Of a DNA stretch of 64,000 nucleotides, positions 1 through 62,065 are shown piece by piece. The notes under the pieces were generated by a model that saw only the letters and a list, made by a program, of their open reading frames with translations, was not told the DNA's origin and did no database searches. The translations under genes and the position numbers were made by a program. The DNA comes from an uncultured Verrucomicrobiae bacterium (GTDB lineage: Bacteria > Verrucomicrobiota > Verrucomicrobiia > Limisphaerales > Palsa-1400). Each line of letters begins with the position of its first letter. Position 1 is the stretch's first letter. The stretch lies in the NCBI GenBank assembly GCA_963764165.1, contig CAVXRD010000004.1:464164-528163 (forward strand), written 5' to 3'.

Positions 1-2
1 AA

Positions 3-818
3 GCCACGTCGCTGGCATTGATTCGCACCACCGAATCCGGTCAGGCCGATACGGGCGATGCCTTTATTGCCGACACGCCGATTCAGGACGCGACACCCGG
101 CATCAAGCGCGAACTCATTCGCGGCGGCGAAGATTATTATTTGACAGCCAACAAGGGAGAAAAAATCGAGGGCCTCAAATACGAAATGCCGTCGCAGTCC
201 ATCGAAGGTTTCATAAAGCGCCTCGAACATCGAATCATTCTCGCCTGCGGCTGGTATGCGGAACTGCTCAACCCCAAGGAAGTCGGCGGGGCCAGTGTGC
301 GGCTGATCCAGGACAACGCGCGGGCGACCGTGCGGCACCGCCAAAAATCCATTCGCGCCCGCTCGCTGCGCGCCATCCGTTACGCCGTCGCGAAGGCGAT
401 GAAGAACGGCTGGATTTCCCGCAATGACGTGGATTGGTGGAAATTCGATTTCGAGTATCCCGCCTTATTGACGGTGGACGAGGGTCGTGATTCGCGCAGT
501 GATTTGATGATGCTCTCGCTCGGCACTTTGACCGAGACGAAGTACCACGCCAAATACGGCGACAACCAAAAACAGGTTGCCCGCCAAAAAGACCAGGAAG
601 TCTCCAACCGAATCAAGCGGGCCAAATCCATTTCAGAGGAAACCGGCACGGATTGGGAGTGGGTCTATCAGCAGCTCTGGTCGCCGCGAAGCCCGCCCGC
701 CTTGTCGGCCGAGGGCGATTGGGGACCCAACGGTCCGCCCAAAGGCGACCAGGTTGCGCCCGGTTCCGGAGGAGGCGGCGAAGAGGAAGGCGGCGGAGGC
801 TCAGAAGGAAACCAATGA
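3..818 (+). CDS. phage portal protein, C-terminal part (5' end lies outside the window)
   Basis: ORF is open to the window edge. It sits directly upstream of the S49 prohead protease gene and overlaps it by ATGA, the lambda B-C gene order. Acidic/Gly-rich tail GSGGGGEEEGGGGSEG. Confidence 0.65.
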   Translation, partial: ATSLALIRTTESGQADTGDAFIADTPIQDATPGIKRELIRGGEDYYLTANKGEKIEGLKYEMPSQSIEGFIKRLEHRIILACGWYAELLNPKEVGGASVRLIQDNARATVRHRQKSIRARSLRAIRYAVAKAMKNGWISRNDVDWWKFDFEYPALLTVDEGRDSRSDLMMLSLGTLTETKYHAKYGDNQKQVARQKDQEVSNRIKRAKSISEETGTDWEWVYQQLWSPRSPPALSAEGDWGPNGPPKGDQVAPGSGGGGEEEGGGGSEGNQ

Positions 819-2448: not shown

Positions 2449-3402
2449 ATGGCAACATTAAGCGCAGCGGAAATTCTGGCGGACACACTGGACGCCTTCA
2501 AAACGGAAGTGCCGATTCTCTCGGCGGTTTCCACCGACCTTTCGAGCGCGCGCGCGGTCAAGGGTTCGCAGATCATCGCGCACATTTCGGTTTTGCCGAC
2601 CGTGCAGGCGTATGACCCGGTGACAGGTTTCGCCAACGGCGCCACGGACGCCAGCAACCTCTTGCAGGACGTGCCGGTGACGATGAACTACTTGCCGCAC
2701 GTCCCGACCGACGTCACTTACCTGGATACGATCGCGTCGCAAAAGGATTTGTACAAGGAGGCGATTCGCAATTCCACGTACGTCCTAGGAAAGAACGTCG
2801 TCGATACGCTGCTTGGTTTCATCAACGGCCCGGGCGGAAACAATTTTTCCAACAAGTATCTCGCCTCCCTGGCGAATACCACTTTGGACACCGTCGAAGC
2901 CGTGAGGTCGCTCTTGAACACGAACCACGCCGCGACTGTGGGCCGCTTTGGAATCGTCAGCACCGGGTTTGCCCAGGCGCTGCAGGAAGATCAACGCACA
3001 ATGAGCGCGCTGTTCTACTCGCAGCTCAACGGCGACAACGCGCTGCGCCGCTTTCAGCGCATCGGCGGTTTCAGCAACATTTGGGAATACCCGGATATGC
3101 CGAACAACGGCATCAATCTGAGCGGCGCGTTTGCCGATCGCCGGGCCTTCACCGTGGCCACCCGCATTCCGACGCTGGGCGCTTTCGCCGGCAATCCGCT
3201 CAACGCGCCGATGACGGCCGCGTTCGAAGTCGTCGAGGATCCCGACAGCGGCCTGTCGCTCCTGGGCATCGTGTGGATTACCAACGGCACGTTCAACATG
3301 AACATGACGCGCACGTTCCTGTTCGGCATAAGCGCTGGCAATCAGGGCACTGGCAACGGCCAGAAGACGGACAACGCTTTGGTCTACACGACCACGGCCT
3401 AA
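2449..3402 (+). CDS. putative major capsid protein
   Basis: 317-aa ORF at the capsid position of a lambda-like head module. A-rich leader (agaagaaaatagaaatttt ATG) follows a GCCGAAGCTTCGGC palindrome. Confidence 0.6.
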   Translation: MATLSAAEILADTLDAFKTEVPILSAVSTDLSSARAVKGSQIIAHISVLPTVQAYDPVTGFANGATDASNLLQDVPVTMNYLPHVPTDVTYLDTIASQKDLYKEAIRNSTYVLGKNVVDTLLGFINGPGGNNFSNKYLASLANTTLDTVEAVRSLLNTNHAATVGRFGIVSTGFAQALQEDQRTMSALFYSQLNGDNALRRFQRIGGFSNIWEYPDMPNNGINLSGAFADRRAFTVATRIPTLGAFAGNPLNAPMTAAFEVVEDPDSGLSLLGIVWITNGTFNMNMTRTFLFGISAGNQGTGNGQKTDNALVYTTTA

Positions 3403-3437
3403 CGCGCAGACGGCGCAACGCATCTCGGAAAGCAAAT

Positions 3438-4088
3438 ATGTATATCGCAGTTGGATTTCCAAGCAGCGCCCGTGAAGACGGGGCTGAGGTGCTGTACGCC
3501 GGACAAGACAAAGGCGCGATGCTCAAGGCGATTGATGCCGCGATCGCCTCCAAGAAATTTCAACTGATCGGGAAGCTGCTCAGGCCGCTGTTTCAGAAAC
3601 ACACCATGACGCCCGGCGTGCATGTGATTGTCGATTGCAGCCCGGCCCACAACGCAGGTTTGAAAGCGCAAAGCGCGGCCCTCGCCTCCGGTGCGACTGC
3701 TGAGGAAGCGGCGTCCAAAGGCGCGAGCGTCAAGCTCGATGCCGCCAAAGCCAACGCCCTCTCGCTTGCCAAGCTCGCGGAGGACGAGCGCGGAAAATTT
3801 GCAAATTTGCAACGGGAGTGGCAACGCCAGATCGCGGCCGCCCCGGGTGACAACCGGCTCAAGGTGCACATCGGCCATTTGGAAACGCGGGCAAAAAATG
3901 TCGTGGACTCCGCGATAACGCTGGCGACGGAAGCAGCCGAACGCGCGACCGCCGCCGAGAAAGATTTAGCAGTCAAACAGAAAGCCGCCGAAGACGCGAA
4001 AGCCGCTGCCGAGAAAGCCGCGGCGGAAAAGGCGGACGCAGAAAAAGCCCAAGCCGAGGTTGAATCCAAAGGCAAAAAGAAAAAGTAA
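3438..4088 (+). CDS. hypothetical phage head-module protein with an Ala/Lys-rich coiled-coil C-terminus
   Basis: Start taken at MYIAVGFPSS inside ORF 3081..4088. The C-terminus is AAEKAAAEKADAEKAQAE...KKKK. Confidence 0.45.
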   Translation: MYIAVGFPSSAREDGAEVLYAGQDKGAMLKAIDAAIASKKFQLIGKLLRPLFQKHTMTPGVHVIVDCSPAHNAGLKAQSAALASGATAEEAASKGASVKLDAAKANALSLAKLAEDERGKFANLQREWQRQIAAAPGDNRLKVHIGHLETRAKNVVDSAITLATEAAERATAAEKDLAVKQKAAEDAKAAAEKAAAEKADAEKAQAEVESKGKKKK

Positions 4089-4089
4089 T

Positions 4090-4716
4090 ATGAAGTCCAT
4101 TAAAAATTTTGCAGTGATGATCGTGGTGTTGATCGCCATGCTGTTTGCCTCATTGCGCGCGCGCGCGCAAGGCGGCGGCAGCGCCCCGCAGAACCTGGGA
4201 CCGCAGGGCGCCACGACCGTTGTGCTGGCGACCAATTATCCTTTCGCCTCGCTGCCAGCCAGTTCCACCAACACGTTTCCGCAGACTTATACGGTCACGA
4301 ATATTTATTCGAACGTGTTCTCGATTCCGGTCACCTACGTGACAAACATCACCACTAACACGGTGACAGGTTATATTGACCTCACCGGCCAGCTCGATCT
4401 GGCGATCCAGACTGGTTTTTCATGCACGAACCCCACCGACGTTTCGAACGTGGTTTGGAAGCTGATGCCGTCCCTCGACGGGGTCAATGCCGATACGACG
4501 AACGCCGCCTGGTGGGTCACAAACACCAGCCCGGGCAGCAATGGGCTTGTGCAGACGACTGTTTTTTCCAGCGCCCAAAAATCAGGCATTGCCGGATTCT
4601 TTGTGGGAGAGGTCATCAACCTGAATACGAACCCAATTTTCCCGTTCTTGACCAACGCGACCGGCAGCAATTACCAGTTCATGCAGGTACGCGGAACGAA
4701 GCCTGTCCGTTATTGA
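4090..4716 (+). CDS. hypothetical secreted protein (signal peptide) in the head module
   Basis: MKSIKNFAVMIVVLIAMLFASLRARAQG is a classical signal peptide. ATG lies immediately after the stop of the previous gene. Confidence 0.5.
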   Translation: MKSIKNFAVMIVVLIAMLFASLRARAQGGGSAPQNLGPQGATTVVLATNYPFASLPASSTNTFPQTYTVTNIYSNVFSIPVTYVTNITTNTVTGYIDLTGQLDLAIQTGFSCTNPTDVSNVVWKLMPSLDGVNADTTNAAWWVTNTSPGSNGLVQTTVFSSAQKSGIAGFFVGEVINLNTNPIFPFLTNATGSNYQFMQVRGTKPVRY

Positions 4717-14462: not shown

Positions 14463-17400
14463 ATGATTTTCACAGAAGCCAACGAAGGAAACGAAGGGAA
14501 AATTGCGAGGAGCGCTTTGCCCAAGTTTCTCCGATTTATTTTCCCCCTTTGTGTCCTTTGTTACCTTCTGTTAAATCCCCGGGTCCAGGCCCAGCTCGTC
14601 ACCAGCCCGACCGGGCGAGCGATCGCCACCATCACCAACGGGACCAGCAACCTTGTCCTGACGGCCCAGGGCGGCAGCGCCCCGCCCGTCTGGGCCCCGG
14701 CATCGGGCTCCGGAAGCTCGACGACCATCAACGGCCTGACCGGCGCCGTCAGCGTCATCATCACAAACATCGGCGGGAATTCAGGGATGACAGAAGTCTT
14801 GTTGACCAACGGAAACTATTTGCTGATCTCCAATAATTGGAGCCAGGTCGCCACGCTCGCGTTGCTTGCGGCCCAGGGAACGGCCGACACAAATTACGCG
14901 CTAGCGATCGGCGCAGCGCTGACGAACGCGCTCGCCGCGCAAGGCGTCTCCGTGACAAATTTCGCGAATGCTGGTCTGGCTGCGCAGGGAGCGGCCGTCA
15001 CGAATTTTGCCAAAGCAATCGGATCCGCAATCACCAACGCGCTCGCCGCGCAAGGAACGGTGCAGACCAATTACACCCTCGCCGTCGGCGCGGCGATTAC
15101 CAACGCGCTGAATTTTGAAATCGCGGCCGCCGGAGCGCAAGCCACCAATTACGCCAACGGCATAAGTTCCGCGATTTATGTCTCGCTGGGATCGGCGGGA
15201 GCGGCGATTACCAATTTCGTCAACGCCGGTTTGGCGGCCCAGGGCACGGCCACCACGAACTTTGCCAAGGGCGTCGGAACATCCGTGACCAATGCGCTGG
15301 CCACACAAGGAATGGCCAACACGAATTTCGCCAGCGGCATCGGAACCAGCGTCACCAACGCCATCGCCGCCGGTGGAACGGCCGCGACCAATTACGTTAT
15401 CGCCTCGCTCGCCGCGCAAGGCACGGCCACCACGAATGCGATCAAAGCGGCCACGAATACAATCGCGTCCGGATCGCTGGCCGGCGCGCTCCCCTACTCC
15501 GTTTACCCGTCGGGAATTTCAGGAACAGTTCTGTCAAACACAGGCAGCGCGGTCGTGTGGGCCGCATCGCCGACCGGCGGTGGAACGGCAGGCATCGGCA
15601 CGCTCAACGGCGTCGGCACCAACACGTATTTGACAAACGCCACGACCAGCGGCGAGACCGCGACAAATCTAGCCATTTCGACCGGCGCGACAAAAACCAA
15701 CGGGACCGGATCGGCAGGCTTCACCGAAAACATCAACCTCGGCCCGAGCGGAATTTATCAAACCGTCGTCTCAGAAAACGCCGTCCACAAATGGAGCGTC
15801 CTGCAGACGGGAACGCTTTGGGAAATCCTCGATGGCAACAGCCAGGTCGCCTTCGCCATCAATCAGGCCTCCGGCGATGTCATCTTTGGCAACGGAGGAT
15901 TGTTGACCAACATCCTCATTTCGGCGCTGCAATCCAACAACGCGGCCGCGGGAACGTACTACGCATTGACCAATACCGGCAGCGGCCTGGCTCTCATGCA
16001 GATTACCGCCATTGCCGGCGTCAACGGTCAGGCCACCAATACTTACACCACGAACGGTTTCACCAGCGGCGAAACAGCGACCAATCTGACCATCTCGACC
16101 GGCGCGACAAAAACCAACGGGACCGCCTCGGCGGGATTCACGGAGAATATCAACCTTGGCCCGAGCGGGATTTATCAAACGGTCGTTTCCCAGAATGGCG
16201 TGGGAAAATGGCACGTCTTGCAGACCGCAACACTTTGGGAAATTCTCGACTCGGCCAACAATGTCGCCTTCCAAATCAACCAGGCATCCGGCGATGTCAT
16301 TTTTGGCAATGGCGGATTGTTGACAAACATTCTGATCGCCGGAATTTCCAGCAACGGCGTCACGGCCGGAAGCGTTTTCGTCGTCACCAACACAGGCGCG
16401 GGCCTCGGCTTCATGCTCGCCCCTGCGGCCAGCGGGATCAACACGAGCGGCGGCTTTGGCACCAACAATTATTTGACCAACGCCACGACCAGCGGCGAGC
16501 ACGCCACCAATTTGACCATCGCCAGCGGCAACGCCGGCGGCGCAACGAACCTGAACGCGAATGCCTTCACCGGAGGCACAACCGCACTCACCAATCACAA
16601 CGCGGCCGTGGCCAATTTCGGAAGCAACGTGGTTACGGCCGCAACGAACGTCAGCGGAGCCATCGCCAATTCCGGAACTTTCTCCACCGACGGCGGAAAC
16701 ATCAGCAGCGACGCTCTTGGCCACCTGTCCATTTCGCCGAATGAAAACAACGGCGTTGGCTTGACTGTTAGCCAGGATCAGGCCGGCGACGACATTGCGG
16801 ATTTCACCGATTGGAACGGCAATTTGATCTTTCAGCTCGACGGACCGAATCAGCAAGCGAAACTGGCCGCGCCCTGGATTTACGCTGGCAACGGCAGCGA
16901 CCTCACGACCCTTAACGCCTCGCAATTAACCAGCGGCACGGTGCTTCCCGCGCGTCTCGGCGGCGGATCCCCCAGCTCGAGCACGGTTTTGTACGGCAAT
17001 TCCACTTGGGGCCCCATCGTCGGCGGCAGCGGGATCGCGACCAGCGGCGGCGCCGGCACCAACAATTATTTAACGAACGCCACCACGAGTGGAGAGAGCG
17101 CAACGAATCTCACCATCGTGAGCGGCAACATTTCAGGGGCGACCAACCTGCCCGTTTCGGCGCTCAAGACAAACGGCCTGACGGCCGGAAGCGTCTACGT
17201 CCTGACCAATTCTGGAAGCGGAATGACCGTGATGGTTGCTCCGTCTGGAGGCGGCGGAGGAGGCTCGGGAATTCCAACCATCGCAGGCGTCGGCACCAAC
17301 ACGTATTTAACCAATGCGACGAGCAGCGGCGAGATTGCGACAAACATCAGCATTATCAGCGGTAATATTTCTGGAGCGACAAATCTCCCGCCGTCAGGCC

Positions 17401-19532
17401 TGAGCAGCGGCAGCGCGTCTGCAGGGCAAGTGCTCGAATGGAGCGGCACGGCTTGGGTTCCAACGTCCATCAGCAGCTATCTCAATTTCACAACGGTCGG
17501 CGGCGTCAACGATGGCGTCACTCTAAATGATGCAGCGTTCTCGAACGCGTGCGCAGCCCTCGGCCCGGCAGGCGGCGTGCTCTATATGCCGAAAGGCAGC
17601 GGCTACAAATTCAAAGGCGGCATCATCATCACCAATCAGCAGATCACGATCCAGGGCGACGGCATGGGTGTCTACGGCGGATTGGGCGAGCCGGACGTTT
17701 TCAGCAGCGTCATCATCTGGACCAATCTGACGACCAATCTCTTCACCTTCACAGGACAGTCAATAACATTTCAAAATCTCTCAGGATTCTGGACAAACAC
17801 CGCCGCGCCGACCGCTGGCGCGTTCATCGCCGTCACCACCAATTGGGACGGCGTCAATGGACAGGTGCAATGCAACTGGCTCAACGTGCTTTTGGATGGT
17901 GGATATCGCTGTGTTGATTATCAAGCCGGGCAGAACTGGCAGGCGACTCAATTGGAATGGGTGCGCTGGTGGATGGACGGCATCCGCATCAACAATTTGG
18001 CCAATCCAGACATCGGAGGCTGGACGATCACCGGCAGCGGTTGGGCTGCCGTGGCTGGCCTGCAATACACTATAGGAGCGCATGTTGCTAACAGCGCCAT
18101 TTGCTGGAACGGATCAGGCGGCGGCTCGATCATCAACACGGGCGGAGGCGCATTCAATTGGGGCGGGTATAGCGACCCCGGCGGCTACACCAATGCCATC
18201 TTGATCCAGCCGGAATATCCATCCGGCGCGGATTCCACCAGCACGTTCTTCATTAACAACGCGCTCATCGACAATTATCTTGTGCATGGAATTTACTCCG
18301 AGCCAGGCACGGGATCTTTCTCCAACATCAAATTCGTTCAGGTCCAAATGGAGTCTTTTGTCGGCGGCGCATCGTCAGCAATTTTGCTAACGGGCGGAAT
18401 TGGAAATAACGGCACCATTGACGGGTTTTCAACAGAACAGCCTATTGCCAATCAAATCACCTTGAGCGGAATGGCTGGCATCGGCCTCGGTTTGATTAAC
18501 AACAGCGGAGTGGAACCTAGCGTCGAATTGCTCAGCGCATCGACCTGCTACCCATTCTCTGATTTCACCGGCATTTTTGATCCCTTCGCCGGAAATCCAC
18601 AATTGAAGATCGGATCATGGTTTTTGCAATCGCTTAACACGAACGATACCACCCTCGGATTCAACGGCTACTTCACCGGAAGCGGTTTGACCGCGAAGCA
18701 AACCGGCGCGGTCGCGACCATCCAGGGACTCAACCAGGGCGGCATGTTCATGACGCTCTACGGCCAGACAACCGCTGGAGCCGTCGTCGGCAGCCCCACG
18801 CAAATATTCGCCGTGCGGCCAGGCGGCATCGGCATCGGAACGTTCACGCCCGCGGCGGAACTCACAGTCAACGGGGCGGCCATTGTGAGCAACAGCGTGA
18901 CCGCAAACGGCGGATTCATTGGGCTCGGCAGCGCCCTGACCAATTCCGCGGGACACAATTATCAGGACGGAGTCCAGGCAACGAACATGTTTGCCACGCT
19001 CGCCGCAACTCAGCCGACGAACCTTACTTTGACACAGATCGCCAGTCAGACGTCCACGGCGATCAACGGCGCCGGCATAACGAACATCCCTTTGTCTGGT
19101 GCGGTTGCTGGCGGAAACACCATCGCTACAAACGGCCAGGCAACCGCAACCAATAATATTGGTTTTGTGCTTCGAGCCGAAGCTTTGACCCTCAACACCT
19201 CGGCAAATTATTTCGCGCCATCTTACAATTCCACCGGAGGCACGGAGGTAAACAAGGCGTCGGGGCTGCTCGGCGGAGTCTACGGAGACAACGTGACTGT
19301 CAACTTCTCTGCCACCAATTTGCCTGGGACTAACGTCTACATAATTTGGAGAACCAACCAGATTTCTTGTGCAACCAATGTGATTTCCGGCCCCATCACG
19401 CCATTGCAACCGTACACATTTTCAAACCCACTCACCGTGACAAACGGAACAACGTGGGATTTCATCATCACGAACAGCGTAAGCACGACCGGGTACTACA
19501 TCACGATGGCAGTGAGCCAGAGGCCGCTATGA
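14463..19532 (+). CDS. tail fibre/tailspike with Ala-rich repeats, duplicated ~139-aa modules and a pectate-lyase-like beta-helix domain
   Basis: About 23-aa repeats AAQGTATTNFAKGVGTSVTNALA. The motif GTNTYLTNATTSGETATNL occurs five times. FTTVGGVNDGVTLNDAAFSNACAALGPAGGVLYMPKGSGYKF matches the N-terminal signature of the Pectate_lyase_3/tailspike family. Confidence 0.8.
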   Translation: MIFTEANEGNEGKIARSALPKFLRFIFPLCVLCYLLLNPRVQAQLVTSPTGRAIATITNGTSNLVLTAQGGSAPPVWAPASGSGSSTTINGLTGAVSVIITNIGGNSGMTEVLLTNGNYLLISNNWSQVATLALLAAQGTADTNYALAIGAALTNALAAQGVSVTNFANAGLAAQGAAVTNFAKAIGSAITNALAAQGTVQTNYTLAVGAAITNALNFEIAAAGAQATNYANGISSAIYVSLGSAGAAITNFVNAGLAAQGTATTNFAKGVGTSVTNALATQGMANTNFASGIGTSVTNAIAAGGTAATNYVIASLAAQGTATTNAIKAATNTIASGSLAGALPYSVYPSGISGTVLSNTGSAVVWAASPTGGGTAGIGTLNGVGTNTYLTNATTSGETATNLAISTGATKTNGTGSAGFTENINLGPSGIYQTVVSENAVHKWSVLQTGTLWEILDGNSQVAFAINQASGDVIFGNGGLLTNILISALQSNNAAAGTYYALTNTGSGLALMQITAIAGVNGQATNTYTTNGFTSGETATNLTISTGATKTNGTASAGFTENINLGPSGIYQTVVSQNGVGKWHVLQTATLWEILDSANNVAFQINQASGDVIFGNGGLLTNILIAGISSNGVTAGSVFVVTNTGAGLGFMLAPAASGINTSGGFGTNNYLTNATTSGEHATNLTIASGNAGGATNLNANAFTGGTTALTNHNAAVANFGSNVVTAATNVSGAIANSGTFSTDGGNISSDALGHLSISPNENNGVGLTVSQDQAGDDIADFTDWNGNLIFQLDGPNQQAKLAAPWIYAGNGSDLTTLNASQLTSGTVLPARLGGGSPSSSTVLYGNSTWGPIVGGSGIATSGGAGTNNYLTNATTSGESATNLTIVSGNISGATNLPVSALKTNGLTAGSVYVLTNSGSGMTVMVAPSGGGGGGSGIPTIAGVGTNTYLTNATSSGEIATNISIISGNISGATNLPPSGLSSGSASAGQVLEWSGTAWVPTSISSYLNFTTVGGVNDGVTLNDAAFSNACAALGPAGGVLYMPKGSGYKFKGGIIITNQQITIQGDGMGVYGGLGEPDVFSSVIIWTNLTTNLFTFTGQSITFQNLSGFWTNTAAPTAGAFIAVTTNWDGVNGQVQCNWLNVLLDGGYRCVDYQAGQNWQATQLEWVRWWMDGIRINNLANPDIGGWTITGSGWAAVAGLQYTIGAHVANSAICWNGSGGGSIINTGGGAFNWGGYSDPGGYTNAILIQPEYPSGADSTSTFFINNALIDNYLVHGIYSEPGTGSFSNIKFVQVQMESFVGGASSAILLTGGIGNNGTIDGFSTEQPIANQITLSGMAGIGLGLINNSGVEPSVELLSASTCYPFSDFTGIFDPFAGNPQLKIGSWFLQSLNTNDTTLGFNGYFTGSGLTAKQTGAVATIQGLNQGGMFMTLYGQTTAGAVVGSPTQIFAVRPGGIGIGTFTPAAELTVNGAAIVSNSVTANGGFIGLGSALTNSAGHNYQDGVQATNMFATLAATQPTNLTLTQIASQTSTAINGAGITNIPLSGAVAGGNTIATNGQATATNNIGFVLRAEALTLNTSANYFAPSYNSTGGTEVNKASGLLGGVYGDNVTVNFSATNLPGTNVYIIWRTNQISCATNVISGPITPLQPYTFSNPLTVTNGTTWDFIITNSVSTTGYYITMAVSQRPL
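14473..14570. repeat. REP-like imperfect inverted repeat (about 31-bp arms, about 34-nt loop) inside the 5' end of the tail fibre ORF
   Basis: CAGAAGCCAACGAAGGAAACGAAGGGAAAAT (14473-14503) pairs with ATTTTCCCCCTTTGTGTCCTTTGTTACCTTCTG (14538-14570). Several mismatches are G-U compatible. Confidence 0.6.
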
Positions 19533-19858: not shown

Positions 19859-19952
19859 TTACGATTTTGGCGGGGTGTGGTGCGTGGGGAAATCCCATGA
19901 CAGGGTTGAATTTTCCCCTCATGAATCACCCGCCGAAAATCTGAAAGTTAAT

Positions 19953-20669
19953 ATGAACGATACAACTCAAATTTTGCTGCAAACGCTCCTCAAATTTATC
20001 GCGGGCTCCCTTGTTACCAAGGGAATCCTCAGCGCGCACGACGCCTCCGCCGCATCCGAACTCGCCTACACAATCGTCGGCGCCGTGATCGGCCTCTTCG
20101 CCCTCGCCTGGCACAAAGCCCACGCAGACAAATTGCTGGCCACGCCTCCGCCTGGGAGCGCCCCGTCCGCGCCAGCATCCGGCACACTGCTCCCATTAAT
20201 CGCATTCCTCCCATTCCTCGCATTGCCCGCCTTCACCGGCTGCGCGCTCCTGGACAAGCCATTGCCCGGCCAGACAACTCCGGCGCCGCTCGTAGCCTTC
20301 ACCAACGGCACTGCGTATTTGCTCGGCCACGCTGCCACCAGCAATGAGGTCTACACCGCCGCCCACGACGCCGCCAAGGTCGGCACAGCCGGCTTGCTGC
20401 TCGAATTCCCGACCGCGACAAATTACATTTCAGACGCCCAAGTCGTTTTTGAAAGCTTCGCGACCGGCGGAACATTCTCGCTGCCTGAGTTGACCAACGC
20501 CATCGCGCAGATCGGCATCAAGAACGCCGGAGACGAAACCGTCGTCTCCCTGCTGGGCAGTTCCGCGCTGAGCCTCGCGGGCCTCTACGTCGCCCCGCTC
20601 ATCAGCGAAGACACCAACGCCGCCCCCTACATCCACGCCGCGCTGCACGGCATCGCCGACGGCCTCTAA
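19953..20669 (+). CDS. membrane protein with an internal lipobox-like segment
   Basis: Start taken at MNDTTQILLQ. TM helices, then LIAFLPFLALPAFTGC. Confidence 0.4.
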   Translation: MNDTTQILLQTLLKFIAGSLVTKGILSAHDASAASELAYTIVGAVIGLFALAWHKAHADKLLATPPPGSAPSAPASGTLLPLIAFLPFLALPAFTGCALLDKPLPGQTTPAPLVAFTNGTAYLLGHAATSNEVYTAAHDAAKVGTAGLLLEFPTATNYISDAQVVFESFATGGTFSLPELTNAIAQIGIKNAGDETVVSLLGSSALSLAGLYVAPLISEDTNAAPYIHAALHGIADGL

Positions 20670-20751
20670 ACCGGTAGCCGTGAACTATAGATTACAGCCA
20701 TGAATTTCATCGGCCCGAATATTCAGCGCGATTGCCAGCGCCTTCAACTGG

Positions 20752-20895
20752 ATGACTGGCCGCGACCAGATCAAAAACAGCCCTGCGATGCAAGCCGCCG
20801 CCGCCGCCAAAAGCGAACAAGCGCAGGTCGACAAGGCCACCAAGGCCATCGCCACCCAGGACACCGAAGAAATCAGGAAGGAGCTAGCCGAGTGA
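20752..20895 (+). CDS. small coiled-coil ORF coupled (GTGA) to the downstream lipoprotein gene
   Basis: MTGRDQIKNSPAMQAAAAAKSEQAQVDKATKAIATQDTEEIRKELAE reads as natural protein. The alternative frame starting at 20700 is Arg/His/Gln-rich. Start is uncertain and a frameshift relative to the ATG at 20700 is possible. Confidence 0.3.
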   Translation: MTGRDQIKNSPAMQAAAAAKSEQAQVDKATKAIATQDTEEIRKELAE

Positions 20896-21269
20896 AACAA
20901 TCCGCATCAATTCAGTGCAAATTCGCATTCCTCCCATTCCTCGCATGCCTCCTATTCTGCCATGCCTGCACAACGGTCGTTCCGGAAAAGACCGAAGCGA
21001 AAGCCCCCAGCTTTGACGGCGGGGCTCAAAACAGCGGCTTCGAAGGTTGGACCACGAACACCCAGACCGGCGCCGTGTATGCCACATTGACCAGCCACGC
21101 CCGCGACCGCTACAACGCGCTTATACAAGCCTACGGCAAGCGTTTCGCGCCGCCGTTGGTCAAAGACGCCGGACTCATCCCAACAGCCACAGGCTGGCAA
21201 ATCGACTTGCAGCATCTGGCTAATTTCGCGACCATGAACCGCTGGAAAAAAGAAGCCGTCAAACCCTGA
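20892..21269 (+). CDS. putative lipoprotein (GTG start)
   Basis: VKQSASIQCKFAFLPFLACLLFCHAC is a signal-peptide/lipobox-like N-terminus. It shares a 23-bp identical coding segment with 20201-20223. Confidence 0.45.
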   Translation: MKQSASIQCKFAFLPFLACLLFCHACTTVVPEKTEAKAPSFDGGAQNSGFEGWTTNTQTGAVYATLTSHARDRYNALIQAYGKRFAPPLVKDAGLIPTATGWQIDLQHLANFATMNRWKKEAVKP

Positions 21270-22157: not shown

Positions 22158-25100
22158 ATGACATCACAATTGCAAACCCAATCCAAACCCTCGATTTTCA
22201 AGCGGCTCGGCGCCTTGGCGGCGATCGGCCTTCTGGCTGTGGGCGCTTATTCCATTTACGTCGCGACTCACGAACCTGATTCGCAGGAAACGGTTCTGCT
22301 GGGCCAAACGCGCGTTGCGGCCGGCAGTCCGGCTGGATTCCGGATCGTGGTGCGCAATCGAATCACGGGCCAGACCGTGCGCGGGGCCAATGTTGAAATA
22401 GCGCTCGCGTCCAAGAATTCGCAAAGGACGAGGCTCGGCAATGTTCACACCGACGCGAGTGGCACGTTTGATGGATCGCTCAATATTCCTGAGGTGGCGC
22501 CCGGGAATTATCAGCTTCTCGTCGATGTGACGTCCTCGTTAGGGCGCGATCACCTGGTGAAGAATATCGAGGTGGAAAATCCCGCCCGCGTCTTCTTGTC
22601 CAGTGACAAGCCGCTTTACCAACCCGGACAGACGATCCATTTGCGAACGATGCTGGTCAACCCGCGAACGGAAAAACCCCTTACGAACGAAACGATGACC
22701 TTTGAAATCAGCGATCCCAATGGAAACAAGGTCTTTAAGGAGACGCGTCTCCCCTCCACTTTCGGAATCGCCGCGGCGGATTTCGTCCTCGCTTCGGAGC
22801 TGAATCCCGGTCGGTACCAAATTCGCGCCGCCGCCGGCCCTGCCACGGCGGAGCGAGCTGTTGAAGTCAAACATTACGTTTTGCCGAAATTCAAAATCCG
22901 GGTTTCAACCGACAAACCGTACTACCTGCCAGGCCAGATTGTGACTGGGACAGTGGAAGGGAATTACTTCTTCGGCAAACCGGTTGCGGAGGCGGACGTC
23001 AATTTAACGGCCGCCACGGTGGAGGACAAACCGGTGGCCATCGCCGGGTTGAAGGGAACGACTGATTCCAATGGCAAATACGCTTTTCGTTTTGTTCTGC
23101 CTGATTTTTTCGCGGGGCTGCCAGAAAAGAACGCGCAGGCCTTCCTGGACCTGACCGCGACGCTGACGGACACGGCGCGGCATTCTGAGAAATCAACCCT
23201 ATCGCTCACCGTCGCGCAAAGTGAATTGGAGATCGCGGCCATTCCCGAGGCGGGGACATTTGTGCCTGGGGTTGAAAACGTTCTTTACGTGCTCACGTCT
23301 TACCCGGATGGCCGTCCGGCGGCATGCAAGGTTTTGCTGAATGGAACTGCCTACGCGACGGATGCAGCGGGTGTCTGCGAAATCAAACTGACGCCTTCCG
23401 ACACAACGCCGCCGGTTGAACTTACCGCGCTCGATTCGGTTGGACGGAAAGCGAAGCTGGTGTTTCATCCGGACAAGACCCTCCCTGCAGCGCCGCTGTT
23501 GGTGCGTGCGGACAAAGCGGTTTACCAAGCCGGCCAAGCTGCCAAAATCACTGTTCTCTCGTCCGAAGGCGATAACACTGTGTTCATCGACGCGATCAAA
23601 GACGGCCAGACGGTCTTCACCAAGTCGGCGTCTCTAAAGAACCATGCGGCGGAATGCGCAATCGATCTTCCCGCGTCGCTGGTTGGCCCTCTTCAGATCA
23701 ACGCCTACGTTATTGCAGCCAATGGCGAAGACAGAGGCAGTTCGCGCGTGTTGTTTATCAATCCCGCATCCGGGCTAAACATTTCGGCGAAATTGTCGAA
23801 GCCAATCTATCGGCCAGGCGAGTTGGCGACGGTTGATCTGAGCGTCACAGACTCCCGTGGCCAGCCGGCGCCTGCTGCGTTAGGAATTGCGGCGGTCGAC
23901 GAGAGCGTCTTCGCCCTGCACGAAAATCGGCCCGGCCTCTTGCAGCAGTTTCTCGACGCAGAAAGCGACTTGTTGAAGCCGCGCTATCAAATAAAATTCT
24001 TTGACACGCCGGACCAGATTCTTCTCGGCACGCAACAAAGGCTGGCGTCGGCGTATCTCGCTTCATTGGAGCAGCGATCCGCTCCGTCAGGAATCGAGGC
24101 CATGATTCACAGCGGCGATCCTTCGGCCCAATCTCTCGTGGATCAACTCCGCCGATTCAAGGGAACGAAGGAATATGAGTCTCTCCGCAATGACCCGCAG
24201 TTCGCCGAAGCGTTTCGTTTCGCCGAGGGCGGCGGAGGTCTTTACACGATGCGTGAAGCGACGGGTCCGGTGAAGCTTCAAGCAACGGAGGCGCACCGGC
24301 GGGCTTATTTCAACGCACTGGGCAAATATGGGCGAAATGCCTTCCTTGCGGCGGTGTTCCTTGCTCCTCTAATCCTGCTGATTTGCCTGTCGCGACGCAA
24401 ATCGGCTGTCATTTCCGCGAACGCAAGCCCGGGCGCATTGCGTGGAGCAGAAATAAGCGTTCGTGTTTATAACAAGCTCGGCGCAGCGACCATTTTTCCA
24501 TTGATATGGTATCCGGGTGGGCTGGCGCTGTTCGCTGGGCGAAACGATCACGCAGCGTGGTTTCTCTTCGGAGTGGAGGTGGTTGCAATTCTTCTACTTC
24601 TTTGCGTCGGATTTTTTGAAACAAGACCCACAGCGGTGAAGGATCTGGGGCGGGACACCACAAGCGCTCGCATCGGTCTCATTGCCTTTTTCACACAATT
24701 CGCATTTTCCCGCGCAAGTTTCGCCATGATCGCACTAAATCCGCCATCTTCGGAAGACATGCTCATCATGCTGCTGCTCGGGAGCGTTCTCGCGCCCCTG
24801 ACCGTTTTGGCCTCCTACGGGATTCTTTTAAAGAACCAAATGGACAGTCAAAACATCACAACCCGGACTCCGCAAGTGTCCTTCGCGTTTTGGGCCTCAG
24901 TCATCGTCATGATCCTCGTCTTGTCATCCATGCTCCTGCCCTCGCTGGCGCGGGCCAAACAAAAAGCGCAACGCATTTCATTGATTAACACATTGAGGCA
25001 AATCGAGACCGAAAAGCAGATCATGGATTCCGATAATGCGGGCCCGGAAAATGCCGCCCAAAGTTCGCCCCGCATCCGGCGTGATTTTCCCGAAACGCTT

Positions 25101-27158
25101 TTCTGGCGGCCGGAGTTGATCACCGACGACCACGGGAAGGCGAGTCTGGAAATTCCACTGGCCGATTCCATCACAACCTGGCGCACGGCGATTGATGGAA
25201 TCAGTTCCACGGGAAAGATGGGCGGCGCGGAATTGCCAATTCCCGTCTTCCAGGATTTCTTTATTGATCTCGACCTGCCCGTCTCCATGTCGCTGGGTGA
25301 CGAGGTCTCAGTCCCTATTAGCTGCTACAACTATTTGAACGAAGCGCAGGACGTTCATTTGACTCTAGCGTCCGCTGACTGGTTTGAATCACCACTGCGA
25401 ACCGCTGCGATCCATCTCGCGCCCAACGAAGTAAAAAGCGCGACTCTGCCAATCAAGGTTGTCCGCGTGGGCAACCGCTCCCTCCGCATTTCAGCTCAGG
25501 GAACCAAAATGTCGGACGCCGTTGAACGCGAAATCCGAGTGCTCCCGGTAGGTGAGAAAACCGAGCGGACACAAAATGAGATTCTGCAAAGCGACTTCAC
25601 CGATACGATGACTATTCCGGAAGGCTCCGTGCCGGATTCGCAGAAATTGATCGCAAAGTTTTATCCATCGCGCTTTAGCGAGATTGTCGAAGGACTGGAT
25701 TCGATTTTCGAAGCGCCTCATGGATGTTTTGAGCAGACCTCTTCCACCACCTATCCAAACGTCCTCGTGCTTGATTACCTCAAGCGCATGGGCCGCTTGA
25801 CGCCGGAGATCGAGATTCGAGCGCGCAAGTTCATTAACACCGGTTACCAGAGGCTCTTGACCTTCGAGGTTCCAGGCGGCGGTTTTGAATGGTTCGGCCA
25901 TACGCCTGCCAATGTGGGACTGACGGCCTACGGCATTTTGGAGTTTACGGATATGAACCACATTCAGCCCGTTGATCAAGCAATGGTAAGTCGAACTCTG
26001 GAATGGCTGCGGGCGCAGCAGAGCGCTGACGGCTCGTGGAAGCAGGCCGACGGCTACGACGATTGGTCGCAACGCAAGCCGCTCACCGCCTATGTGGCAT
26101 GGTCTTTGGCTGAAGCGGGCGACCATTCGCCGACTCTCCAGAAGGCGCTGGATTACTTGCGAACTCACCCCGATGAAATTTCAACAACCTATGCCAAAGC
26201 CCTCGCCGCAAATGCGTTGCTCGGCAACAACCGAAGCGACGCCTTCGGTCGCCAATTGGCGACTCAGTTGCACGACACCGCTTTCAACGACTGCAAACAA
26301 ATGGTTCATTGGAAATCCACCGGGCAAAGTCTTACGCATTCAATTGGAATGGGAATGGAGACGGAGACAACCGCCCTGGCGGCAATGGCGTTGATGAAAG
26401 CAGGCATGTGGCCGCAAACTGTCAAACAGGCGTTAAATTGGATCTCGAAGGCCAAAGACGCAAATGGCACATTTGGATCGACCCAAGCCACGATTCTCGC
26501 CATCCGCGCCCTTTTGACGGGAAGCACCACCTCGCTTGGACAAGATTTTGAATCCGTGATCTCAGTCAAGGTCAACGGACAATCCGTCGAAACATTCCAC
26601 GTTACCAAGGATAATAGCGACGTGATGAAACAGGTTGATTTAACAAAATTCCTTCGCCTCGGCGAAAATAAAATCAGCTTTCATCAAGAGCCGGCTGGCG
26701 AACTGCCGTTCCAATTTGCCGGCTCATATTGGAAGCCGTCTGTTCCGACTATATCGGCCGCGAAGACGAACGCCGATCCCCTGCAAATTGACGTCCAATA
26801 CGATCGCACCGCCCTCTCCATCAACGACCAGCTCAAATGCTCAGTCACAGTCAAGAATAACACGAGCCAGCGCATCAACATGGCTATCGTCGATTTGGGC
26901 ATCCCACCGGGGTTCGAAGTGGACGAAACTTCGTTCGAGCGAATGCGCGAAAAGGATCAAATCGCCAAGTTTGAATTGACTGGAGCACAGGTCATTCTCT
27001 ATTTGCGCGACCTTTCCGAATCGTCTCCATTCAAGTTCGATTACAGTTTGAGGGCCAAATACCCGTTGCGCGTCCAGACACCACCGAGCGCCGTCTATGA
27101 ATACTATCAGCCCAAGAACCGCGCTGAGGCGAAGAGGGTCACATTGGAAGCCCTGTAA
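22158..27158 (+). CDS. alpha-2-macroglobulin family protein with N-terminal anchor and an internal 6-TM insert
   Basis: Repeated MG-domain starts (DKPLYQPGQ, DKPYYLPGQ, DKAVYQAGQ, SKPIYRPGE). A2M domain RRDFPETLFWRPEL...DSITTWR. Thioester motif GCFEQTSS. GGAGG Shine-Dalgarno sequence upstream. Confidence 0.85.
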   Translation: MTSQLQTQSKPSIFKRLGALAAIGLLAVGAYSIYVATHEPDSQETVLLGQTRVAAGSPAGFRIVVRNRITGQTVRGANVEIALASKNSQRTRLGNVHTDASGTFDGSLNIPEVAPGNYQLLVDVTSSLGRDHLVKNIEVENPARVFLSSDKPLYQPGQTIHLRTMLVNPRTEKPLTNETMTFEISDPNGNKVFKETRLPSTFGIAAADFVLASELNPGRYQIRAAAGPATAERAVEVKHYVLPKFKIRVSTDKPYYLPGQIVTGTVEGNYFFGKPVAEADVNLTAATVEDKPVAIAGLKGTTDSNGKYAFRFVLPDFFAGLPEKNAQAFLDLTATLTDTARHSEKSTLSLTVAQSELEIAAIPEAGTFVPGVENVLYVLTSYPDGRPAACKVLLNGTAYATDAAGVCEIKLTPSDTTPPVELTALDSVGRKAKLVFHPDKTLPAAPLLVRADKAVYQAGQAAKITVLSSEGDNTVFIDAIKDGQTVFTKSASLKNHAAECAIDLPASLVGPLQINAYVIAANGEDRGSSRVLFINPASGLNISAKLSKPIYRPGELATVDLSVTDSRGQPAPAALGIAAVDESVFALHENRPGLLQQFLDAESDLLKPRYQIKFFDTPDQILLGTQQRLASAYLASLEQRSAPSGIEAMIHSGDPSAQSLVDQLRRFKGTKEYESLRNDPQFAEAFRFAEGGGGLYTMREATGPVKLQATEAHRRAYFNALGKYGRNAFLAAVFLAPLILLICLSRRKSAVISANASPGALRGAEISVRVYNKLGAATIFPLIWYPGGLALFAGRNDHAAWFLFGVEVVAILLLLCVGFFETRPTAVKDLGRDTTSARIGLIAFFTQFAFSRASFAMIALNPPSSEDMLIMLLLGSVLAPLTVLASYGILLKNQMDSQNITTRTPQVSFAFWASVIVMILVLSSMLLPSLARAKQKAQRISLINTLRQIETEKQIMDSDNAGPENAAQSSPRIRRDFPETLFWRPELITDDHGKASLEIPLADSITTWRTAIDGISSTGKMGGAELPIPVFQDFFIDLDLPVSMSLGDEVSVPISCYNYLNEAQDVHLTLASADWFESPLRTAAIHLAPNEVKSATLPIKVVRVGNRSLRISAQGTKMSDAVEREIRVLPVGEKTERTQNEILQSDFTDTMTIPEGSVPDSQKLIAKFYPSRFSEIVEGLDSIFEAPHGCFEQTSSTTYPNVLVLDYLKRMGRLTPEIEIRARKFINTGYQRLLTFEVPGGGFEWFGHTPANVGLTAYGILEFTDMNHIQPVDQAMVSRTLEWLRAQQSADGSWKQADGYDDWSQRKPLTAYVAWSLAEAGDHSPTLQKALDYLRTHPDEISTTYAKALAANALLGNNRSDAFGRQLATQLHDTAFNDCKQMVHWKSTGQSLTHSIGMGMETETTALAAMALMKAGMWPQTVKQALNWISKAKDANGTFGSTQATILAIRALLTGSTTSLGQDFESVISVKVNGQSVETFHVTKDNSDVMKQVDLTKFLRLGENKISFHQEPAGELPFQFAGSYWKPSVPTISAAKTNADPLQIDVQYDRTALSINDQLKCSVTVKNNTSQRINMAIVDLGIPPGFEVDETSFERMREKDQIAKFELTGAQVILYLRDLSESSPFKFDYSLRAKYPLRVQTPPSAVYEYYQPKNRAEAKRVTLEAL

Positions 27159-61047: not shown

Positions 61048-61216
61048 CTTCCGCGCAAGCCGTTTCGACGCTCCAGCAAATTAATCGGCGAGTCTCTCCC
61101 TACCGAAAATCAAGTTCCCGTGGGACGGCATACCACAAACTGCGTATATGATTCAATTGCGGGGAGTGTATAATTACAGGCGTGGGCAGCAAAACCAATT
61201 CGGTTCTAACGGCAGC

Positions 61217-62065
61217 ATGAGAATTGTATCCAAGAGGTTAGTCAACGCCAGAAAAACCAGGGGCCAAAGGGAAGCACGCGAGAGGCGAGGTTTCACTTTG
61301 ATCGAACTGCTGGTCGTCATTGCCATCATCGCCATACTTGCCTCCCTGCTCTTGCCGGCCTTGGCCACTGCCAAGCGCAAAGCGCAAGACATTCAGTGCC
61401 TCAATAATGGCAAGCAGATCGTCCTCTCCATGAAGATGTACGTCAACGACTCGGCGGACATGATGATCAGCTACAATGACCCGAGCGGGGCTTACACTCT
61501 GTGGGTCGGCCGGCTGCAATCCAACTACAGCCAGCTTGCGCAATCCCGCCTCTGCCCCGCCACACGCGATCCAAATCCGTGGGTCGAGCAGCAACCCGCC
61601 TCCACCAGCGATGGCAACGGCGGCTTGGGAGTGGCCGATTACACTTGGAACTGGGGGGTCTACAGCGCGTCGGCCTATCATGGGAGCTATGGCATCAACG
61701 CCTGGTGCTATTCGGGGCTCGACGGCAGTTCGAGCTACTTTGACAAGGAAGCAAACGTGACCAAACCGGCGACAACGCCCTATTTTTCCGACTCCATCTG
61801 GATCGACGGCGGGCCTCTCGAAGCGGATACTCCCGCTCGGAATTTGTATACCGGCGCCGACGATGAAGACATGGAACGCATCACCATCGCAAGGCACGGC
61901 ATCAATCCCGGTCGCGCCCCAAGAAACGTCCCGGCGGGAACATTCTTAGTGGGCATGATTAACCTTGGTTTCGTCGACGGGCATGTCGAAGCGAAGCGCC
62001 TGGAAGATTTGTGGAGCCTCACCTGGCGCAAGGGCTGGGTGCAGCCGAACCCGCGCCCAAAGTAG
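61217..62065 (+). CDS. prepilin-type N-terminal cleavage/methylation domain protein (DUF1559-like)
   Basis: [36 protein letters not shown]-terminal FVDGHVE motif. Start taken at MRIVSKR (61148 is an alternative). Confidence 0.75.

Follow-up and report, generated by a model that had tools for sequence, protein, structure and literature searches.

A predicted six-helix membrane module with a pilin-type last helix in the bait slot of a bacterial alpha-2-macroglobulin family

Proteins of the A2M, TEP and complement families are textbook soluble or lipid-anchored immune effectors. To our knowledge, the bacterial A2M members described so far are of the ECAM/YfhM and MagD/YfaS types. In the A2M family, activation is triggered by a chain break N-terminal to the alpha'NT segment, which frees alpha'NT from a channel that MG2, MG3 and the first LNK helix make up together (PMC9352918). 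According to a 2026 review of A2M evolution (PMC12939704), bacterial bait domains are smaller than eukaryotic ones, and no membrane-spanning or pilin-containing A2M is described in the literature searched, which included this review. The DNA analyzed here (hereafter the window) is a 64,000-nucleotide stretch of contig CAVXRD010000004.1 from an uncultured Verrucomicrobiae bacterium. It encodes an A2M/TEP-like protein in which alignments and structural models place a six-helix membrane module, ending in a pilin-type helix, at the position of the bait region.

The gene is a single open reading frame (ORF) of 1666 amino acids (aa), uninterrupted as stated in a preliminary description of the window, and encodes a complete thioester-containing protein. 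The usual order reported there, with an anchor, MG domains, the A2M domain, the thioester GCFEQ and C-terminal domains, was recovered with all landmarks located and in agreement with Pfam. Hydropathy was evaluated by the Kyte-Doolittle (KD) scale on the single protein and as a family mean over 91 aligned relatives, which were also used for loop charges. The framework of the protein consists of the following features.

22158..27158, + strand: complete A2M/TEP-like gene in a single ORF, with Pfam matches to MG2, MG3, A2M_BRD, A2M, TED_complement and A2M_recep
22206..22262, + strand: predicted N-terminal signal-anchor helix, transmembrane (TM) helix TM0, aa 17-35, with a basic tail before it (KD peak 1.95; family-mean segment 11-38)
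23883..23918, + strand: GIAAVDESVFAL, aa 576-587, last strand of MG6a and end of the A2M_BRD match (Pfam; D581 invariant)
25722..25736, + strand: thioester motif GCFEQ, aa 1189-1193, inside the TED at aa 1175-1452 (TED_complement 1.4e-42; motif residues invariant)
26874..27128, + strand: C-terminal receptor-binding/MG8-type domain, aa 1573-1657 (A2M_recep 1.6e-15)

Pfam assigns MG2 to aa 144-236 (2.7e-27), MG3 to aa 239-309 (5.3e-07), A2M_BRD to aa 449-587 (2e-11), A2M to aa 980-1070, TED_complement, which contains GCFEQ, to aa 1175-1452 (1.4e-42) and A2M_recep to aa 1573-1657 (1.6e-15), and residues 108-420 align to the MG domains of TEP1 in a phmmer search. The thioester residues G1189, C1190, F1191, E1192 and Q1193 are invariant, and GCFEQ is found in all relatives listed. 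The N-terminus (MTSQLQTQSKPSIFKRLGALAAIGLLAVGAYSIYVATHE) contains no cysteine and hence no lipobox, and a hydrophobic signal-anchor is found instead; the tail preceding TM0 carries a mean net charge of +2.6 across the 91 relatives, and the conserved motif YSIYVAxHEPDxQETV follows TM0. An MG ring, a TED with Cys-x-Glu-Gln, an MG6 insert followed by an alpha'NT plug, and an MG8/receptor-binding domain are all present. The protein belongs to the A2M/TEP/complement superfamily, all of whose defining features that can be tested from sequence it displays.

The Pfam assignments leave a gap of about 390 residues between A2M_BRD and A2M, with no assignment at aa 588-979; the two motifs that flank it, GIAAVDESVFAL (aa 576-587) and RRDFPETLFW (aa 975-984), are separated by 387 residues. 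Positions 23930-25075 (aa 592-973), where an extra segment had been noted, coincide with this gap. The closest solved structures in a PDB sequence search are TEP1 (2pn5, 1.7e-55), CD109 (1e-54) and A2M (4e-53), with further matches to A2ML1 (3.5e-50), C3 (1e-33) and ECAM/YfhM (~1e-8). Full-length alignments with TEP1, CD109, A2M and C3 all break at residue ~590 and resume at ~967-973, and query residue 971 is paired with residue 13 of the C3b alpha' chain. These alignments therefore place the insert in the slot that holds the bait region in A2M and the anaphylatoxin (ANA) domain in C3, inside MG6, in line with the bait position originally proposed for it. Sequence from both sides of the insert is needed to complete MG6.

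23919..24107, + strand: conserved linker, helical, that follows MG6a, aa 588-650, and corresponds to the LNK of A2M and C3 (conservation, AlphaFold2)

The linker carries the conserved sequence ENRPGLLQQFLDxExxLLKPRYQIKFF and is helical in the AlphaFold2 (AF2) model. Insert variation was surveyed at 66 species-level loci with a delimitable slot, in which the inserts were delimited by BLASTP anchoring. The first 55-65 positions of a profile built from aa 588-699 match nearly all 66 loci regardless of the insert type, including forms that lack TM helices. The LNK-like linker is therefore conserved, and the variable module starts at about aa 650. Consequently, a gap of the ~380 residues first described as extra is present, but its first ~60 residues belong to the conserved post-MG6a linker.

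A full-length search identified 3110 related proteins at E ≤ 1e-10, and an insert-only word-index search, which has limited sensitivity, identified five. The best 120 of the 3110 proteins are mostly 1650-1700 aa in length, display six hydrophobic peaks at the same place and contain an invariant GCFEQ; where their taxa are named, they are mostly Verrucomicrobia, Lentisphaerae, Phycisphaerae and Kiritimatiellae, with a few bins labelled otherwise. In a scan of one genome per species, at least 594 genomes encode a relative, and these genomes are distributed over Verrucomicrobiota, Planctomycetota, Lentisphaerota, Armatimonadota, Chloroflexota, Acidobacteriota, Hydrogenedentota and other phyla. 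Several source annotations already read 'pseudopilin PulG' or 'prepilin-type N-terminal cleavage/methylation domain'. NCBIfam contains no model for the family, and for want of an NCBI naming model its genes carry no annotation beyond 'MG2 domain-containing' or 'hypothetical'. As judged from these matches, the design occurs widely among bacteria of soil and water, and in a large family found in Verrucomicrobiota, Lentisphaerota, Planctomycetota and elsewhere it is the usual form. The architecture had been called a non-textbook A2M design, which holds for the membrane module in the bait slot but not as a peculiarity of this genome.

The same distribution bears on the possibility that two neighboring genes were joined by a missed stop codon or frameshift, or that the insert is a mobile element. 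The L088 locus, where the gene is broken into four ORFs, could be taken in favor of such an artefact, but it resembles an error-prone assembly or a pseudogene rather than a natural split. The uninterrupted architecture is found in dozens of independent source assemblies from NCBI, JGI, ENA and Logan. An identical protein (P0006) is encoded on a 788-kb NCBI contig, and a second independent assembly (L001) also carries it. Moreover, MG6 is completed only by both insert flanks, and base composition is uniform, with a GC content of 0.52-0.58 in the insert as in its flanks. No natural two-gene version was found among the relatives: P0127 ends at a contig end, and the P0001 locus has the gene in four ORFs. 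The single-ORF conservation excludes a split gene of the kind that had been raised as a caveat, and an artefact of either type has a practically negligible probability.

The membrane module was modeled with AF2 using an 80-sequence alignment, and the models cover aa 540-1085 and aa 690-965 of the protein. The first has a predicted local distance difference test (pLDDT) score of 76.7, and the second, a confident model, has a pLDDT of 85.4 and a predicted template modeling (pTM) score of 0.75. The module up to its fifth TM helix is composed of the following predicted segments.

24108..24335, + strand: family-specific soluble helical segment and amphipathic pre-TM helix, aa 651-726 (conservation, AF2)
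24336..24392, + strand: TM1, aa 727-745, running from periplasm to cytoplasm (KD 2.39; family 720-747; AF2 698-746)
24483..24536, + strand: TM2, aa 776-793 (family 769-793; AF2 758-791)
24555..24620, + strand: TM3, aa 800-821, with intramembrane E807 (KD 2.71; AF2 799-822)
24672..24737, + strand: TM4, aa 839-860, with Q847 and R852 (family 835-860; AF2 835-860)
24759..24830, + strand: TM5, aa 868-891 (KD 2.24; family 864-891; AF2 867-897)

Four segments of the gap exceed a KD mean of 2.2 in the single protein (peaks at 727, 802, 868 and 909), and the helices at 776-793 (TM2) and 839-860 (TM4) are weaker in this sequence, with KD values below 1.5. The family mean resolves six hydrophobic segments, at 720-747, 769-793, 798-823, 835-860, 864-891 and 902-934. 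Both AF2 models contain long helices at approximately 698-746, 758-791, 799-822, 835-860, 867-897 and 909-960. Loops 1, 3 and 5 are positively charged (net +1.5, +0.8 and +3.0), and loops 2 and 4, of about seven residues each, are acidic (net -0.4 and -1.2). This alternation fits the positive-inside rule for a six-helix topology with both termini outside. A small beta-bridge that joins loops 1 and 5 in both models is consistent with their location on the same side. The six TM helices originally listed are thus recovered by family-mean hydropathy, positive-inside loops and AF2 models, which support the view, also put forward at the outset, that the even helix count keeps both halves of the protein on the same side of the membrane, the periplasm.

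The helices could instead lie outside the membrane, packed as the core of a soluble, purely helical domain in place of the anaphylatoxin domain, as the low hydrophobicity and polar residues of TM2 and TM4 in this protein would allow. Such a core is highly improbable given six apolar segments of 18-24 residues with family-mean hydropathy of up to 2.97, loop charges that alternate according to the positive-inside rule, and long AF2 helices in parallel or antiparallel arrangement. In addition, the last helix has a known membrane helix, pilin alpha1-N, as its homolog, and helix counts are even in the clearly resolved forms of the family (2, 6 and ~10), with counts of one or three resembling merged or over-split hairpins.

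The TM part is conserved to a lesser extent (mean column identity ~0.45) than the MG and TED domains (0.7-0.85). Conservation is found at discrete positions. The segment at aa 651-726 contains the conserved pattern Y.LREATGP.K...EAHR.AYF, and its AF2 helix is continuous from residue 698 into TM1. T702, K706 and L721 are at least 90% conserved in both alignments, as is P781 in TM2, and Y696, R714, Y717, F718 and the TM2 residue Y785 reach this level in the 80-sequence set. Conserved polar residues are located within the helices, namely E807 (77/91 relatives), Q847 (76/91) and R852 (80/91); Q818, R821 and H890, although conserved in many relatives, are absent from the window protein. TM1-5 yielded no significant structural match in the PDB and no sequence-profile or fold match to known polytopic families (rhomboid, CPBP, A24 prepilin peptidase, transporters and others). 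An exhaustive phmmer search of 1.84 billion representatives with TM1-5 produced only nine matches, all of them family members or fragments, and TM1-5 was not found in any non-A2M context.

The sixth helix was compared with prepilins of the window, which encodes two canonical prepilin-type genes.

24873..25034, + strand: degenerate pseudopilin alpha-1 helix, aa 906-959, comprising TM6 (alpha1-N), Pro928 (pilin P22) and an amphipathic alpha1-C half (AF2, register, relatives)
61148-62065, + strand: prepilin-type gene with an RERRG↓ site (TIGR02532, 35.5 bits; also GspG/GspH N-termini and 'Verru_Chthon cassette protein D')
~49962, + strand: prepilin-type gene with a GG↓ site

AF2 builds residues 909-960 as a single unbroken helix in the style of pilin alpha-1, with about 20 apolar residues, Pro22 and then an amphipathic half; P928 is at least 90% conserved among relatives. 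The segment Q906-VSFAFWASVIVMILVLSSMLLPSLARAKQKAQRISLINTLRQIE aligns in the same register as the prepilin encoded at 61148..62065, so that Q906, V907 and F911 correspond to pilin positions -1, +1 and +5, and the motif LLPALAxAKxKAQ is common to the TM6 extension and the window's own prepilins. The direct BLASTP match between PSLARAKQKAQRISLINTLRQIE and the window prepilin is weak (E 0.002), and the window protein itself matches neither PF07963 (N_methyl) nor TIGR02532. The relation is nevertheless secured by relatives that match the pilin models at the homologous helix, some of which retain a canonical internal G↓FTLIE site with scores above the Pfam and TIGRFAM cut-offs. Relative P0038, which has an AG↓ site, matches N_methyl (27.9 bits; cut-off 21.2), TIGR02532 (27.2 bits; cut-off 16.3) and positions 2-55 of GspG, and relative P0068, a two-TM hairpin form with a KSSRESRG↓ site, matches N_methyl above the cut-off at the homologous place. 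The pilin likeness of the last helix that had been noticed is therefore real, and these model matches show, by homology, that TM6 and its extension descend from the N-terminal helix of a pseudopilin of the type II secretion system (T2SS) or type IV pili (T4P).

The window protein departs from a functional pilin N-terminus in several respects. It lacks the site formed by Gly-1 and Phe or Met at +1, as well as Glu+5, and the helix is found not at an N-terminus after a short basic leader but at aa ~906 of 1666, behind five TM helices and preceded by the basic loop 5 (+3.0). Pilin-site residues were counted among the 83 relatives that contain the LLPAL motif. Position +5 is occupied by Glu in 51/83 and by Asp in 6/83, and position -1 is occupied by Gly in 11/83 and by Arg in 39/83, leaving 72/83 without Gly. 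The window protein is probably not cleaved by prepilin peptidase because Gly-1 and Glu+5 have been lost.

In principle, the internal pilin segment could still be a working class III signal, at which prepilin peptidase cuts before TM6 to generate two chains, the C-terminal one being extracted or assembled by pilus machinery. The textbook KSSRESRG↓ site of P0068 after a short basic loop, the AG↓ site of P0038 with its matches above both cut-offs and the 11 relatives with Gly-1 are compatible with such processing, and a two-chain form is structurally feasible in that the MG6 of C3 and other members is built from two chains (PMC9352918). This reading is very unlikely: the window protein has Gln-1, Val+1 and Phe+5 and matches neither pilin model, 72 of the 83 relatives lack Gly-1 and 39 have Arg there, and two-gene versions were not found. 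A broader evolutionary proposal, that bacteria repeatedly rebuilt a complement-like activation slot around pseudopilin parts and that some members thereby became linked to pilus machinery, is a long shot on present evidence. If it were true, P0068 and P0038, with their internal G↓FTxxE site, would be cut by prepilin peptidase into two chains, as C3 is by furin, and the thioester chain would begin with a methylated, membrane-held pilin helix. Activation or pseudopilus display would then depend on extraction of the helix by the T2SS or T4P and not solely on a foreign protease, and the window protein would represent a derived form in which the link has decayed to a fixed six-helix anchor.

The slot is always filled at the 66 loci, by inserts of 215-634 residues, and the inserts fall into four classes.

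~18/66 loci: six TM helices
2/66 loci: about ten TM helices
~14/66 loci: one to three counted TM helices, mostly hairpins, with few counts of one or three
~30/66 loci: no TM helix, most with GspG-type motifs (DPWG, GPD..DD)

Even-numbered TM modules are found at 30 or more of the 66 loci, and the single TM helix counted in P0109 corresponds to two helices merged by a tight turn. The two loci with about ten hydrophobic helices in the slot are L015 (insert of 634 aa in an ORF of 2259 aa) and L052 (insert of 485 aa). Pedosphaera parvula encodes a relative with two TM helices (WP_007417951). In P0113 and P0114, the region between A2M_BRD and A2M matches the Pfam T2SSG domain above the cut-off. Planctomycete hairpin forms are likewise recovered with the pilin-helix profile. 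A profile of TM1-5 from the Planctomycetes-Verrucomicrobia-Chlamydiae (PVC) type recovers Verrucomicrobiota, Lentisphaerota and two more distant loci, and the six-TM forms of Chloroflexota and Myxococcota were not recovered with it. In an hhalign comparison of the PVC-type and Chloroflexota/Myxococcota-type modules, the match is confined to the pre-TM helix and TM1 (probability 58%, E 1e-4; reversed control 0.5%). The Chloroflexota inserts from Anaerolineae-type genomes (L027, L031, L042, L050, L056, L059 and L081) have six TM helices and no pilin motif, and ahead of the alpha'NT plug they terminate in long low-complexity linkers rich in Ala, Pro, Thr and Gln. Membrane modules may therefore have arisen in the slot more than once.

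Three relatives (P0104, P0109 and P0120) have an N-terminal stretch of ~40 aa that corresponds to an anti-sigma zf-HC2 domain (30.9 bits in P0104), followed by a TM helix, on the same A2M scaffold. This fusion suggests a protease-sensing anti-sigma factor and, as far as domain content can tell, shows that the A2M scaffold serves transmembrane signaling in some lineages.

Between the membrane module and the A2M domain, the window protein contains two short segments of opposite conservation.

25035..25070, + strand: hypervariable disordered linker, aa 960-971, SDNAGPENAAQS, proposed bait (pLDDT, entropy)
25071..25112, + strand: alpha'NT plug, aa 972-985, SPRIRRDFPETLFW (invariant residues)

Residues 961-976 have a pLDDT below 50 in the AF2 model. 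The linker, which is rich in Ala, Gly, Glu, Pro, Asp and Ser, has an entropy of 2.69 bits and varies from 9 to 16 residues among the 91 relatives, and the following alpha'NT segment has an entropy of 0.49 bits. Extrapolation from C3b places the first alpha' residue, just past the C3 convertase cut, at about aa 959, and aa 945-971 constitute the only periplasm-facing stretch directly upstream of the plug. In the plug, R974, F977, P978, E979, T980, L981 and W983 are invariant in 42 relatives, and R974 and F977 are equivalent to R732 and F735, which belong to the plug-in-channel trigger of human A2M (PMC9352918). Almost no variation is seen in the MG2-MG3 linker YVLPKF, and the LNK helix is conserved. 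Since it is disordered, hypervariable and located immediately upstream of a conserved trigger, the linker at aa 960-971 is proposed as the bait. A far longer low-complexity, Ala/Pro-rich stretch takes its place in the Chloroflexota forms. The membrane module does stand in the slot, as first described, but it does not replace the bait altogether: a candidate cleavable linker appears to be retained between module and plug.

The best reading of the protein, to which we assign about an even chance, is that of an inner-membrane-tethered, periplasm-facing protease trap. TM0 would anchor the N-terminal MG1-MG6a ring, after which the chain would pass through the LNK-like helical linker, span the membrane six times and re-emerge as the long pilin-type alpha-1 helix, in this protein an uncleaved membrane helix. 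The 12-residue flexible linker would connect this helix to the alpha'NT plug, MG6b, MG7, CUB, TED and the C-terminal domain, such that both halves of the protein would be periplasmic. A protease entering the periplasm would cut the exposed linker between the module and the plug (~aa 945-971). The chain break would release the plug from the channel that MG2, MG3 and LNK form, as in other A2M-family proteins, and the exposed thioester would bind the protease covalently. The resulting complex would remain on the inner membrane via TM0 and TM1-6, with the bundle serving mainly as a tether.

Several observations weigh against a protease trap of this kind. TM0 alone would suffice as an anchor, so anchoring does not account for a bundle of six conserved helices whose buried polar residues E807, Q847 and R852 are also conserved. 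Next to classical bait regions, the proposed bait, with 12 residues (9-16 in relatives), is short. Most relatives keep Glu+5, a hint of a pilin-type interaction for which a pure tether has no use. No conserved operon partner was found across the loci examined, save a divergent HTH_17 gene in a subset. The buried polar residues together with the Glu+5 retained in most relatives suggest a further role, for example in signaling or in docking to the pilus machinery.

Such a role would be primary if the membrane module were a coupling device, in which the pilin helix docks to the T2SS/T4P platform or to pseudopilins, or the cytoplasmic loops relay the activation state. Glu or Asp is found at pilin +5 in 57/83 relatives even though Gly-1 is mostly lost, and a charge within a TM helix is normally counter-selected unless it is used. 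The buried polar network of E807, Q847 and R852, the cytoplasmic zf-HC2 domain fused to the same scaffold in P0104, P0109 and P0120 and the GspG globular domain in the slot of relatives without TM helices point in the same direction. However, the window protein has Phe at +5 and Leu at 890, so that a Glu+5-dependent interaction is inapplicable to it. The cytoplasmic loops, of ~31, 17 and 17 residues, are short and show little conservation (entropy 2.7-3.0 bits), and T2SS or T4P genes are not conserved beside the gene at the loci examined. Differences between the Glu and non-Glu groups at possible charge partners of Glu+5 (e.g. H890 and Y744) are inseparable from phylogeny. A coupling device is therefore regarded as unlikely, and the protease trap is preferred.

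In the window, the gene is neighbored by a holin-like gene, unannotated ORFs and Tex, and no pbpC partner is found there. Neighboring genes in the window and at other loci are as follows.

14463-19532, 19875-20669 and 20700-21269, + strand: an ORF of 1689 aa upstream of the A2M gene, then the holin-like gene
55018-60789, + strand: a very large ORF of 1923 aa, just upstream of the prepilin gene at 61148
L003:1-267, L004:8757-9251, L005:5681-6124, L083:6393-6896, L086:6163-6699 and L088:4408-4917, all - strand: HTH_17 gene copies
L002: 13797-21076 (- strand), 3203-4441 (+ strand) and 1-128 (+ strand): ECAM-type A2M/PBP1c, with a trypsin-like protease and an ECF-type sigma factor upstream
L088: 1-2819, - strand: genes for a serpin and for a VIT/YfaP_C protein, a few kb away from an A2M gene copy that is fragmented

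The holin-like gene matches Phage_holin_10 with 24.3 bits, under the cut-off of 27. The upstream 1689-aa ORF was considered as an A2M paralog and rejected, as it displays no similarity and no Pfam match. Six loci encode a divergent protein of ~160 aa just upstream of the A2M gene, consisting of an excisionase-type HTH_17 domain and a C-terminal CxxC...CxxC ribbon. These loci are of the verrucomicrobial type, and the window has phage-like genes in place of an HTH_17 gene. The HTH_17 protein may be a dedicated regulator of the A2M gene, and the genes upstream of the window gene may be a prophage remnant where relatives carry the HTH_17 gene. At L002, the locus of P0038, a classical ECAM-type A2M (bMG3, bMG10) and PBP1c adjoin the TM-type A2M; the two A2M kinds therefore coexist as distinct paralogous systems. 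With regard to the L088 neighborhood, YfaP is a member of the E. coli yfaS (type II A2M) operon.

The family constitutes a third bacterial A2M lineage, one that is large and nearer in sequence to animal TEP/CD109 than to ECAM, and whose activation slot holds predicted membrane helices or pseudopilin domains. As natural variants of the plug-in-channel trigger in which the segment upstream of the plug would be fixed in the membrane, its members could be used to probe the contributions of chain discontinuity, tethering and force to thioester activation. The lineage also bears on the origin of eukaryotic thioester proteins and shows an unexpected reuse of the pilin helix.

Compared with TEP1, CD109, A2M, A2ML1 and C3-C5, the window protein has the same domain order, with an insertion in MG6, an alpha'NT plug (R..FPETW), MG7, CUB/TED and MG8. 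As in C3, where the folded module is ANA, a folded module in the MG6 slot is followed by a predicted cleavage site and alpha'NT. In contrast to these eukaryote-type proteins, the slot would be occupied by a six-helix membrane bundle and a pilin helix rather than by a soluble bait loop or the four-helix ANA domain, and the protein is predicted to be membrane-integral with about seven TM helices, whereas the eukaryote-type proteins are secreted or, in the case of CD109, anchored by glycosylphosphatidylinositol. The thioester motif is GCFEQ instead of GCGEQ, and the host is bacterial.

Like ECAM/YfhM and Salmonella A2M (type I) and MagD/YfaS (type II), the protein is bacterial, periplasm-facing, held at the inner membrane and presumed to trap proteases, and it has a thioester in common with the type I proteins. 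It is not an ECAM/YfhM-type A2M, however, because it is distant in sequence (YfhM E ~1e-8), anchored by TM helices with no lipobox or lipid, and devoid of pbpC (PBP1c) linkage in the window, and because its bMG matches in Pfam are below the cut-offs (bMG10, 23.3 bits against 26.2; bMG5, 14.7 against 26.5) and bMG3 is not matched. In contrast to the small bacterial bait domains of the review (PMC12939704), the inserts of this family comprise 215-634 aa.

With T2SS pseudopilins and type IV pilins, among them GspG and the DUF1559-type pilins of the PVC group, TM6 shares ~20 apolar residues, Pro22 and an amphipathic helix containing LLPALAxAKxKAQxIxxxNxLKQI, and some relatives carry the T2SSG globular domain in the same slot. 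Unlike in pilins, the helix is internal, ~900 residues into the chain, and what precedes it is not a short leader but five TM helices. Gly-1, Phe+1 and Glu+5 are missing from the window copy, which is not followed by a pilin globular domain. Functional domains are grafted onto modular type IV pilins, such as PilB and PilC of Streptococcus sanguinis. In both cases, an alpha-1 helix is fused N-terminally to a large module; in the modular pilins this helix is located at the true N-terminus, processed and polymerized, whereas in the window protein it is internal and, as predicted from its residues, not processable.

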